A stretch of 63,571 bases of DNA, the filler included, from Reclinomonas americana ATCC 50394 (taxonomy: Eukaryota): assembly GCA_048213135.1 (NCBI GenBank). It is 18 parts of 18 records of this genome, joined end to end, with 100 filler letters (N's around TTAATTAATTAA, not from the genome) between each part and the next. Parts side by side here need not be neighbours in the genome. Positions count along the whole stretch, not along the records: positions 7,288 to 15,962 come from AFZH01022630.1; 17 more parts are not named here. One strand, 5' to 3'. This document shows positions 12,201 through 15,193 of this stretch, piece after piece. The notes under the pieces were generated by a model, which ran no database searches, had not been told where the DNA came from, and saw only the letters and a list, made by a program, of their open reading frames with translations. The position numbers were made by a program, and so were the translations under genes. How positions within the stretch are numbered: position 1 is the stretch's first letter; every line of letters begins with the position of its first letter.

Positions 12201-15193
12201 ATCGTGGGGCTCAGGTGGGTATCCAGATTTTTGCCGCCCTGCTAGTCGTTGGATGGACGTATGTGAACAGCACGATGTTCCTGTTTGGCTTGCGCTTCTT
12301 GTACTCGCGCAAAACTCTGCGAGATGAGGAGCACGAGGTTCAAGTTTATGGAAAGGACACTGAAGGCGAGTACTACATGCAGCTGGACAAGGCACCGAAA
12401 GGAGCGGTTCGTTGGGGAAAAGGTTGTTTAATTTGATGTGATGTGCAACTCACTGCATTGGCTGCAGATTACTGTGGGATTCACGGTAAGGCCTGCTGCG
12501 TGCACTATGTGTACATGTTCGTGTTTTGATTGCCCTGCGTTGTTACTCACTGTACAACTCCTGATCCCGCGTGCACATATGCATCTCTTTGTCAACACAT
12601 AGGATATCGAAGGTTTGCGGTGTTTCTCAATGCCACTCGTCTCACACATAGAATGCTTGCTACATAGTACAGTGTGAGTGAGAGCCATCAAATGTCAGCA
12701 GCAGCTACAGAACTTATCACTTTCGAGTTTCCCTCCTCGTTGCCAACTACCCTGAGCCCACAGGTTCCACTGCACTGTGGGAGACCGACACGGAGCTCAT
12801 GCTGTTCTGCATTGAGATGCACCATCGCATTGTTCGTCGATGCCTGCGCGAGTTTAATGGATTTGAAGTCAAGACGGAAGGTGTGTGAACGAGAAAGAAG
12901 GTACCGTAAGAAGCAGCAAGAAGCCGTTTTTGTGGAATAGACTTGTGTTTATCGCGTATCGCGGCGATACGCTGGTTGCAGTGTGATCACCCTACGCATG
13001 CCAGAAGTAGAGAATTGTGAACGCACTGTCAAGGTGATTATCAAGGTATGATTGATACGGTAGCATGTTTGCGATCTCTGCTGGACACAACGTGCCATTG
13101 CACATATATGCATAGGGTCAGCTGATCAATGCAAGTTCTCTCTCAGTTTTGTGCGTGTAGTCAGTGATCGCTGACAACTCTTGTCGCGTTCTTAGTTTCC
13201 CTGTCACAACATGACTTTATCTTACTTAGGGTACTTGTGACTGGCAATATTTCTTCCTTTCATTACTCTTCGTGAAACAGAAAATAGAAGCTTTTATACT
13301 GATGGTGTGTCATGTGTAGGTGACGCCTTCATGGTCTCGTTCGCAAGTCCCTTAGATGCCATTCACTGGGCTCTCGAAGTGCAACTCGCGCTAGTCAAGG
13401 TATCTGTATCAAGGACAGCAGGATGAGAGAGGAAGAAACAGCAACGGAGAAAGACAGTGACGGAGGAGCAGATGATGATGATATCGATGATGAAGAAGAC
13501 CTAGAAGAGAAGAAAAATAGAAGAAATAGAAGAGATGAAGAAGAAGAACAAGAGAAGGAAGAAGGAGCTTGTAGATGTGCATGTACATACTGGTAGTGGA
13601 CACAGAAGGAGGAGATGGAGAAGTGTGTAAGTTATTATCTGCTCACTCGTATACGTGTACGTCAACAGGCACCGTGGCCACGAGCTCTCTACAAACTCAG
13701 ATATAGTTGCGCATCACCGACAACAGCAGGGGTAACTCCGTGGGAAAGTTTTCCTCACTTTGCAACGCAGGCGACATTGTGGAAACACCAAAATACGGAG
13801 TAATTTACCGCGGTCTCCGGTCTGTGTGGTCGCCGCCAATCTCTCCCCTGTACTCTCTCACTCATGTTTTCACGCCGCAGTGTCCGCATGGGTCTTCACT
13901 TTGGCGAAGTGATGCACAAGGTTAACAATTTATTACCTGCACTTGCATTCTCTCAGTGATGTCTCTCTCACTCTCACTCGCTGCGCTCTCTTGGAAGATC
14001 GACGAAGTCATGGGGCGCCTCGACTACTACGGAACAGTCGTTAATCGCGGTGCGCGAGTAGCCGGGACAGCCAAGGGTGGCATGTTGCACGTCTCAGATG
14101 AGTTCCTCAGTCAACTTCCCCGAGTTGCGTCGTCGTGGCGATGAATTGCTTCGCTCGTCCACCCACTTCTCACCACACCGTATCTCGCTGCTGTGTCTCA
14201 GAATTCAAACAAAACCCTGGCTCTAGAAATACCAGTGGTCGTCAACTACGCCGGGCCCATGTCCCTCAAGGGCGTTGCGGAAGTGATGCACAGTACGTTC
14301 TCTGCGCTGCTGCCTACTCCGATCACATTGCCACTCTACTTATCATTTCACTGTTCGTCGCAGTCTATCAAATCCTCCCTGAAGTCCTCCAGGAGCGCCT
14401 GCTGGAAGGCTGGAACATGCTCACCTGCGTCGGCGACTATGAAGAATTGCAACGGGAGGAGTTTTTGGCCCACCACCACCACCACAGCACCGTGCACAAG
14501 AGCCCGTCCGAAGGCTCTGGATCTGTGCACACTCGACGCTCCTCTGTGCCGCTCACGGTACACATAGCCGGCGTGCAGAGCCCGAGAAACTCTGCGAGCC
14601 ATTCGTCCACTACTCCCCGCTTCGGCCATCGGCGTGCTTCTGCTGTGTACGGCGACGGCGGCACCGCCGCCGGTGCACGGAAGGTCACATTGGACACAAC
14701 GGATCCGGACCGTGACTCGGCTCATGTTGGTGTGACTTTCAGTGACGTTGTATGCCGCGACGAGCCGTTCCACGGTGGTGCTAGTGGTGGCGATCATAGC
14801 GCCGGGGACAACTCGCCACAACGGTCGACCGAACATGACGGTCCAGGAGGCGTATCGCCGTCTCTTGGCAGCAAGCGCATCGTCTTCAACATGCTGGATG
14901 CCGACTTGGACTGTGGCATCAACAAGACGCTGTCGCGGCTCGTCGTACAGGGTGGCTTGATTGACGACAGCAGCGCTCCGAGTACGCAGATCAGAAGAAC
15001 ATCAATTATCGCCAGCCGTCGTACGTCCATGCTGTACCGAGTACACTACCCGGGCATGACGGATCGAGAACCCGGGCCAGCGTCCTCGCCTGTCGCTAGG
15101 CGTGACAGTGCGCTTCTTACTGCACTATCTCCTTCAAGTCACAACACGAGAAATCGCAAGAAGATTATCCCGACTCAATTTGCAAACTTGTAA
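9268..15193 (+). CDS. Ammonium transporter (Amt/Mep) - class III adenylyl cyclase fusion protein, more than 20 exons
   Basis: Spliced exons give a signal peptide and then Amt motifs: WVFFAGALVFLMQTGFLLLE, LKNY, GTIVSGAMAERTKF, AHWLWS, DFAGGCPVHLVGG, GPR, LLWFGWLGFNAGS, NASLGGLVAITP, DDPVDAVAVHG. Cyclase motifs follow: APKGAITVGFTDIEGSTALW, EVKTEGDAFMVSF, GLRVRMGLHFG, DYYGTVVNRGARV, SLKGV. Stop TAA at 15191-15193. Confidence 0.9.

Follow-up and report, generated by a model that had tools for sequence, protein, structure and literature searches.

A Fused Ammonium Transporter and Predicted Adenylyl Cyclase in Reclinomonas americana: A Candidate Ammonium Receptor with Cyclic AMP Output

Introduction

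Can a single eukaryotic polypeptide both sense ammonium and answer with cyclic AMP (cAMP)? The question is raised by a gene lying in a 63,571-nucleotide stretch of DNA from Reclinomonas americana ATCC 50394 (hereafter, the window, to which positions refer unless a locus is named), which encodes an ammonium transporter (Amt) domain followed, in the same chain, by a class III nucleotide cyclase. The gene occupies the plus strand from 9268 to 15193, on contig G000:C7163 (window 7288-15962), one of several that runs of N keep apart in the window, from an assembly of 108 Mb in 16,441 contigs. It comprises 28 exons and 27 GT-AG introns, and its open product of 959 amino acids (aa) consists of the Amt domain up to about residue 489, the class III cyclase from residue 490 to about 705 and a disordered tail covering residues 711-959. 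We propose, with a probability of roughly one half, that this protein would be a one-component membrane receptor adenylyl cyclase converting an ammonium signal into cAMP. Splicing was predicted from genomic DNA by three-frame reading under the GT-AG rule.

A Single Gene Encodes Both Domains

The gene is considered eukaryotic because it is intron-rich, and it is a single-chain Amt-cyclase fusion. Amt helix 11 and the start of the cyclase (APKGA, 12392..12406) are encoded by one exon, which rules out two adjacent genes. The same holds for other members of the family described below (L028/L029, L011 and L014), where a single exon carries Amt helix 11 and the FTD motif of the cyclase without a break and two neighbouring genes are, thus, not an option. 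A second copy of the gene, L036 (contig C1673), has the same 28 exons, with 707 of 712 aligned residues identical; over residues 1-712, gaps are found in 17 of the 27 introns and in none of the 28 exons, with an intron mismatch of 3.9%, and the tails differ by a single in-frame indel of four codons.

The Cyclase Keeps a Complete, ATP-Type Catalytic Set

The initial annotation held that the cyclase keeps every catalytic residue, and all the motifs it named do occur in the spliced product, where their codons could be located on the DNA. The set is complete (7/7), with the two metal-binding aspartates D501 (12603-12605) and D544 (13322-13324), the adenine-selecting pair K540 (12871-12873) and D620 (14022-14024), the transition-state pair N627 (14043-14045) and R631 (14055-14057) and, as phosphate-binding basic residue, K676 (14268-14270), to which the beta4 arginine R600 (13885-13887) is added. 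These residues are distributed over a series of short plus-strand exons: exon 19 (12468..12485), a micro-exon of 18 nt encoding strand beta1; exon 20 (12603..12612), a micro-exon of 10 nt whose first codon is D501; exon 21 (12764..12880) with K540; exon 22 (13320..13399) with D544; exons 23-25 (13669-13705, 13771-13819 and 13881-13920, spanning 13669..13920) with the PWP motif and beta4, including R600; exon 26 (13998..14123) with D620, N627 and R631; exon 27 (14202..14292) with K676; and the start of exon 28 (14364..14443), which supplies the last cyclase strand and a short conserved segment.

The FTD-IEGS motif is, thus, split over exons 19, 20 and 21 and is non-contiguous in the DNA, and KTEG-D is interrupted by an intron of 439 nt. 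As the two micro-exons supply part of the first of these motifs, the assignment of D501 as a metal ligand depends on the predicted splicing. We, therefore, looked at all the ways of linking exon 18 to exon 21 with zero to two GT-AG exons: there are 877, of which 123 are open and in frame, and the modelled pair of micro-exons scores 216 against four reference segments, with 165 for the next-best option. The 18-nt and 10-nt exons recur in the same phase in L030, L033, L034 and L040 (57% protein identity), in an alignment that was guided by the window gene model.

The claim of ATP specificity fares equally well: K540 and D620 occupy the positions of the E497K/C566D change by which a rhodopsin guanylyl cyclase becomes an adenylyl cyclase, and D620 aligns with the engineered Asp566 of 5OYH, the structure of the converted enzyme (PMC5967339). 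According to the same source, Lys and Asp bind adenine, two Asp bind the metal and Arg stabilises the transition state, in a head-to-tail homodimer. A guanylyl cyclase was considered and rejected, the residues present being Lys/Asp rather than Glu/Cys.

The likeness to trypanosomal and fungal cyclases, also put forward in the initial annotation, is borne out by structural matches and by sequence identity. Exon 21 alone, searched against the PDB, returned two matches, which are T. brucei GRESAG4.3 and GRESAG4.1 only, and K540 aligns with the corresponding Lys of the GRESAG proteins. The individual exons line up in order along a fungal CYR1-type domain, R600 and K676 included; a profile of these exons on the fungal scaffold gave 12 PDB matches, with GRESAG4.1 (1fx2) at E=1.3e-34, a score to which the scaffold itself contributes in part. 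Identity to the best-matching fungal, diplonemid, Capsaspora and unnamed cyclases is 36-46%, several CYR1 domains reaching 43-46%. PF00211 is recognised on exon 26 alone at E=3.9e-4, just under the cut-off. The GRESAG4.1/4.3 and ESAG4 cyclases (PDB 1fx2, 1fx4), of which the first two are the best structural-database match of the catalytic domain, are homodimeric, Lys/Asp-specified and activated by dimerisation (PMC6027212). They differ from the window protein in being single-pass proteins with Venus-flytrap ectodomains, and the GRESAG4 cyclases have a longer insertion before beta4 and an Arg at the last phosphate-binding position. Fungal CYR1-type and diplonemid multi-domain cyclases belong to the same catalytic subfamily and differ by their LRR/PP2C or repeated-cyclase architectures.

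Selection was estimated as the ratio of non-synonymous to synonymous substitution rates (dN/dS). It is 0.01-0.11 for the cyclase in all seven pairs compared and 0.035-0.25 for the Amt domain in the six pairs that gave an estimate; for the window gene and L036 the value is 0.1, drawn from only one non-synonymous and three synonymous changes. The window gene carries a full Mg/Mn-ATP catalytic set with the adenine-selecting Lys/Asp, under purifying selection. Because the catalytic residues are complete and selection is purifying, activity is predicted, and ATP-specific cyclase activity is well supported by these sequence features; the domain very probably makes cAMP as a head-to-tail homodimer.

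The Amt Domain and Its Ammonium Site

The gene begins with exon 1 (9268..9331), which codes for a hydrophobic N-terminal segment, a putative signal peptide with its hydropathy peak at residues 1-19. The Amt membrane domain follows on exons 2-18 (9606..12301), as judged by Pfam PF00909 on the exons together with a table of residues, and includes a plus-strand micro-exon at 10401-10418. The twin histidines, the Phe gate and the residues of the outer binding site are kept (H197/H396, F124/F288, W163, W282, D189 and S292), with roles assigned by AmtB numbering. Also present are the ligands Q49, E56, N71, T130 and S133 of the two ammonium sites N1 and N2, and K70 and Y145, which match the Lys/Tyr conformational switch (Lys-44 and Tyr-119) of Sd-Amt1.

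Sd-Amt1 from Shewanella denitrificans (PDB 8qj3, 8qj4, 8qpf) is an ammonium receptor in which an Amt domain is followed by HAMP and a diguanylate cyclase (PMC11152129). Like the window protein, it combines an Amt with twin His and an N1/N2-type site with a nucleotide cyclase active as a dimer and, consequently, presents the same mismatch between trimer and dimer. It differs in being bacterial, with a GGDEF output producing cyclic di-GMP and a HAMP linker of about 60 residues (PMC11152129), whereas in the window protein a eukaryotic class III adenylyl cyclase is joined directly to an Amt domain that has Asn at the Asp-48 position, and a long tail with RRxS sites follows. A second receptor of the Amt fold, Ks-Amt5 from Ca. 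Kuenenia stuttgartiensis (PDB 6eu6), also lacks a HAMP and is fused directly to an enzyme that is normally dimeric; it is prokaryotic, with a histidine kinase as output, and was shown to be non-transporting (PMC5764959). When an Amt exon of the paralog L028 was compared with the PDB, all three matches were Sd-Amt1 and Ks-Amt5, with Sd-Amt1 on top. The Amt family is described as "strictly trimeric" (PMC5764959) and, by analogy, we infer that the Amt domain of this gene is probably a trimer as well. Sensing of ammonium by this domain is likely, judging from the residues retained.

Linker, Symmetry and Proposed Mechanism

Between the two domains lies the Amt C-terminal region (residues 465-489; 12317..12391, plus strand), with two short predicted helices and directly abutting the cyclase. 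Downstream of helix 11, the sequence matches the ordinary C-terminal region of the bacterial-type Amt L001, and the cyclase begins approximately where L001 ends; a weak alignment with Ks-Amt5 (E=0.022) was also obtained. A HAMP linker was considered here and rejected, this segment having no Pfam match and aligning with the Amt C-terminal region. A shallow structure model of low confidence places helix 11 at residues 427-459 and the two short helices, which have pLDDT values of 54-67, at 468-475 and 479-489. Of 14 sequences compared, 12 place the first catalytic Asp at a distance of 25 residues from the Gly of the C-terminal region, and three of these 12 are unrelated environmental fragments (the window gene and L036 were counted by hand); the distance is 31 in L011, and the Gly motif is absent from L020. 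Such a constant spacing suggests a coupling that depends on register.

The initial annotation had also argued that the cyclase must dimerise, although Amt proteins are trimers. A dimer requirement is stated for class III and trypanosomal cyclases (PMC5967339, PMC6027212), and the symmetry mismatch is plausible, having already been proposed in print for Sd-Amt1 (PMC11152129). For that receptor, pairing of two of the three domains within the trimer was modelled and favoured, and pairing between trimers was left possible (PMC11152129); Ks-Amt5 functions without HAMP and elutes as a trimer (PMC5764959). Trypanosomal catalytic domains have little propensity to dimerise, and zippering them together raises their activity more than 20-fold (PMC6027212), which makes control by proximity and orientation the simplest mechanism.

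The mechanism that we propose would operate as follows. The cyclase domain would form cAMP as a head-to-tail homodimer. The trimeric Amt domain would bind or conduct ammonium through its intact twin-His pore and its N1/N2-type site, the latter with an Asp-to-Asn replacement at N2. The Amt C-terminal region would relay the resulting change, its second short helix continuing straight into the cyclase, so that two of the trimer's three weakly associating catalytic domains would dock productively or not. Control of the cyclase by ammonium is on this evidence probable, and we consider catalytic pairing inside one trimer a likelier geometry than pairing between trimers.

A Tail Rich in RRxS Sites

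The Ser/Arg-rich tail (residues 711-959; 14444..15193, plus strand) has no Pfam match. It contains five RRxS sites, starting at 14534, 14630, 14993, 15017 and 15098, with 0.43 expected and none of 10,000 shuffles reaching this number; residues 1-710 contain none. RRxS/T sites are also enriched in the tails of L030 (three sites, P=0.018) and L033 (four sites, P=0.0008). These RRxS sites match the consensus of the cAMP-activated protein kinase (PKA), which suggests feedback phosphorylation: PKA, once activated by cAMP, would phosphorylate the tail as the last step of the mechanism above.

A further motif of about 20 residues, containing DLDC (14885-14944), was seen by eye in the tail and is common to the last exons of L030 and L033; the three tails that share it are otherwise unalignable. 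It is a possible docking site.

A Family of Amt-Cyclases within the Genome

The genome holds at least seven Amt-cyclase loci, which we designate window/L036, L030/L040, L033/L034, L028/L029, L011, L020 and L014/L008; this count, drawn from genome searches that score the best candidates and from 37 retrieved stretches, is a lower bound. In L014/L008 the junction alone is visible, the cyclase falling in an assembly gap. All seven catalytic residues are found in nine of the ten modelled family copies. The tenth, L020, is a pseudo-cyclase in which, as read on the DNA, the second metal Asp is replaced by Asn, the transition-state Arg by Lys and the last Lys by Asp; an engineered dominant-negative ESAG4 has been described in which a metal Asp and the transition-state Arg were replaced (PMC6027212). 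At this locus (L020:4025-5006, G000:C14), the Gly motif of the linker is lost and the Amt site is intact. At L011 (1782-6421, G000:C12), the pore is remodelled, the twin His are kept and the linker has an insertion of six residues.

A quick tree of 51 rows, which omitted most fungal rows and matches of less than 120 residues, placed nine of the ten Amt-fused cyclases on one branch (SH-aLRT 100), with L020 as a long branch outside it. In the tandem pair L030 (G000:C59, about 35300-39900) and L033 (about 42000-46300), the synonymous divergence (dS) is 1.68 between the Amt halves and 0.084 between the cyclase halves; near-identical cyclase halves next to diverged Amt halves suggest gene conversion confined to the cyclase half. 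Another cyclase of the same subfamily, with 7/7 catalytic residues, exists in two copies (L046/L047; G000:C88 and C837), and no Amt was found within the 9.9 kb retrieved around them. Many genes are present as near-identical pairs of contigs, and L001, on C1, is an intron-less Amt of bacterial type; the assembly, it seems, combines two haplotypes with bacterial DNA.

One could go further and imagine that the seven or more ammonium-to-cAMP receptors tune their affinity through N1/N2, by the Asp-to-Asn change in the window gene, and mix in hetero-trimers, with L020 filling the spare third position or acting as an inhibitor, and with the PKA sites of the tails closing a feedback loop. This scheme is speculative, and we regard it as improbable.

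Weighing the Ammonium Receptor against Its Alternatives

Several observations weigh against an ammonium-controlled receptor built as we propose. The published signature of the N1/N2 sites in ammonium receptors (AmR), QX6EX15NX2DF/TX54-60TX2S/T (PMC11152129), is not matched exactly: five of its six positions are kept, and throughout the Amt-cyclase family the Glu and Asn are spaced by 14 residues where the signature has 15. The missing position is N74 (codon 9984..9986, plus strand), which replaces the ammonium-binding Asp of the N2 site (Asp-48 of Sd-Amt1). This replacement is specific to the window gene and L036: of the eight further copies modelled in the family, seven have Asp here and L011 has Ala, and Asp is likewise found in 74 of the 75 prokaryotic or viral relatives that match the pattern, out of 81 examined. 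Even a perfect signature would be no proof of sensing, because it is also found in true transporters, plant AMT1 for example (PMC11152129). In L011 a complete cyclase sits on a remodelled Amt from which the site's Glu, Asn and Asp and the Trp/Phe/Ser gate are gone, so in this family the cyclase can persist without a normal ammonium site. Pfam detects no HAMP between the Amt domain and the cyclase, HAMP being the pairing element in the Sd-Amt1 model (PMC11152129), and two domains of 200 residues would have to pair beneath one trimer on a very short tether. As for the feedback, the reading of L028/L029 covers 82 residues, up to what is probably an intron, and contains no RRxS/T site. The window copy may have a weakened N2 site, and the protein may work like an AmR though without the exact published signature.

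The best-surviving alternative, which we still hold to be unlikely, is an active adenylyl cyclase whose Amt domain serves as an anchor, an oligomeriser, a sensor of some other cue (pH, amine, membrane stress) or a transporter that does not gate the enzyme. The residues of the transport path are all intact and would fit plain transport; the Asp-to-Asn change at N2 and the retention of every catalytic residue by L011 despite its remodelled pore speak for it too, as does the activation of the trypanosomal relatives by acid, osmotic or proteolytic stress (PMC6027212). However, the coupling length is invariant, the N1 ligands and the Lys/Tyr switch are retained, and in both characterised Amt fusions the output is ammonium-dependent (PMC11152129, PMC5764959).

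Less probable again is a cyclase that is regulated by ammonium and forms its catalytic dimers between neighbouring trimers, activation then being a matter of clustering into hexamers or a lattice in which all three domains are usable. The cyclase starts at the ordinary end of the Amt, which leaves little slack for pairing inside the trimer, and trypanosomal receptor cyclases form multimeric complexes (PMC6027212); furthermore, the objection raised by Pflueger et al. to this arrangement for Sd-Amt1 rested on the geometry of HAMP (PMC11152129), none of which is detected here. Against this, local concentration should favour pairing within the trimer, and Ks-Amt5, which has no HAMP, nevertheless elutes as a trimer (PMC5764959). 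Finally, a cyclase that is inactive, that makes cyclic GMP as a guanylyl cyclase or that is not expressed as modelled (skipped micro-exons, a pseudogene or two genes) is very improbable: key motifs do hinge on two predicted micro-exons, of 10 and 18 nt, and catalytic residues have been lost in one member of the family, L020, but the modelled splice is the best of the 123 open options, its micro-exons are shared by four diverged copies with FTD contiguous in other paralogs, a single exon encodes both helix 11 and the start of the cyclase, dN/dS is 0.1 against L036 (from few changes), and the selecting residues are Lys/Asp, not Glu/Cys.

Searches outside the Genome

A profile of the junction, run against 1.84 billion representatives, found three unnamed fragments with the same succession of helix 11, linker and cyclase start, and no full-length relative among 7,999 long candidates. 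Of 669 candidates searched with the second half of L011, three matched, and Pfam assigns each of them to the fungal CYR1 type; with the cyclase profile, none of the best 120 of 2,432 matches carries PF00909, fungal and multi-cyclase proteins taking up much of this set. In the ESM Atlas, the junction fragment had no usable match, and a cyclase exon matched short hypothetical clusters alone. At eight metagenome loci with a related cyclase, a small sample, there was no credible Amt match; a GC-rich Amt match (E=0.009) at one of them was rejected. Conversely, no class III cyclase was found at 81 prokaryotic or viral loci with a related Amt, a small and biased sample made of the best 80 of at least 533 plus one. 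Several long relatives of the Amt (L079, L080, L096, L107, L116, L120, L124, L126, L127, L133 and L136), prokaryotic except for one on a viral contig, end, by eye, in a PII-like segment, i.e., they appear as Amt-PII fusions.

No description of an Amt-adenylyl cyclase appeared in the full-text literature searched, through listings and the starts of abstracts, most subscription papers lying outside this corpus. PMC11152129 does not use the string "Adenyl" in its main text, nor do "adenylate", "Guanylate_cyc" or "PF00211" appear in its two supplement files; its Fig. 7B, which shows fused architectures by kingdom, is an image and lies outside such text matching. PMC12710649 was considered as a prior description and set aside, since an ammonium transporter figures there in a reference alone.

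Other Features of the Window

Upstream of the Amt-cyclase gene, and apparently head-to-head with it, a minus-strand coding region broken by introns occupies 7288-9200; the five open frames checked there gave no Pfam match. The contigs at 16063-19892 have 62-65% GC, look intron-less and contain tRNA-like stretches by eye, with an M20 peptidase in the frame 18871-19944; they are probably bacterial. On other contigs of the window, Pfam matches were obtained for MOSC_N (2478-3221, minus strand), SNase (6064-6657, minus strand), a DDX23-like protein (39992-41479, minus strand) and, weakly, a ZIP transporter (43784-45166, plus strand).

Significance

Links between ammonium transporters and the cAMP/PKA pathway exist for yeast Mep2 and for the Dictyostelium Amt proteins, where they are indirect and the coupling is debated. 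With the Amt domain and the adenylyl cyclase in a single chain, this coupling could be put to the test in one purified protein by reading out cAMP. Protist fusions of a transporter with a class III cyclase have a precedent in the P4-ATPase-guanylate cyclase chimeras of alveolates and stramenopiles, in which the cyclase is also the more conserved part; these differ by their transporter fold, by their GTP substrate and by a pseudo-heterodimeric cyclase contained in one chain, which poses no symmetry problem (PMC13466520).

A eukaryotic ammonium receptor that answers with cAMP would be a new variation on the bacterial design. The class, with its two bacterial examples, would gain a eukaryotic member and a third type of output, and also a case in which a trimeric sensor drives a dimeric enzyme without HAMP. 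Natural controls are available within the family, in the form of the Asp-to-Asn site variant, the pore-degenerate member and the pseudo-cyclase, and the protein may serve as a scaffold for an ammonium-to-cAMP sensor.

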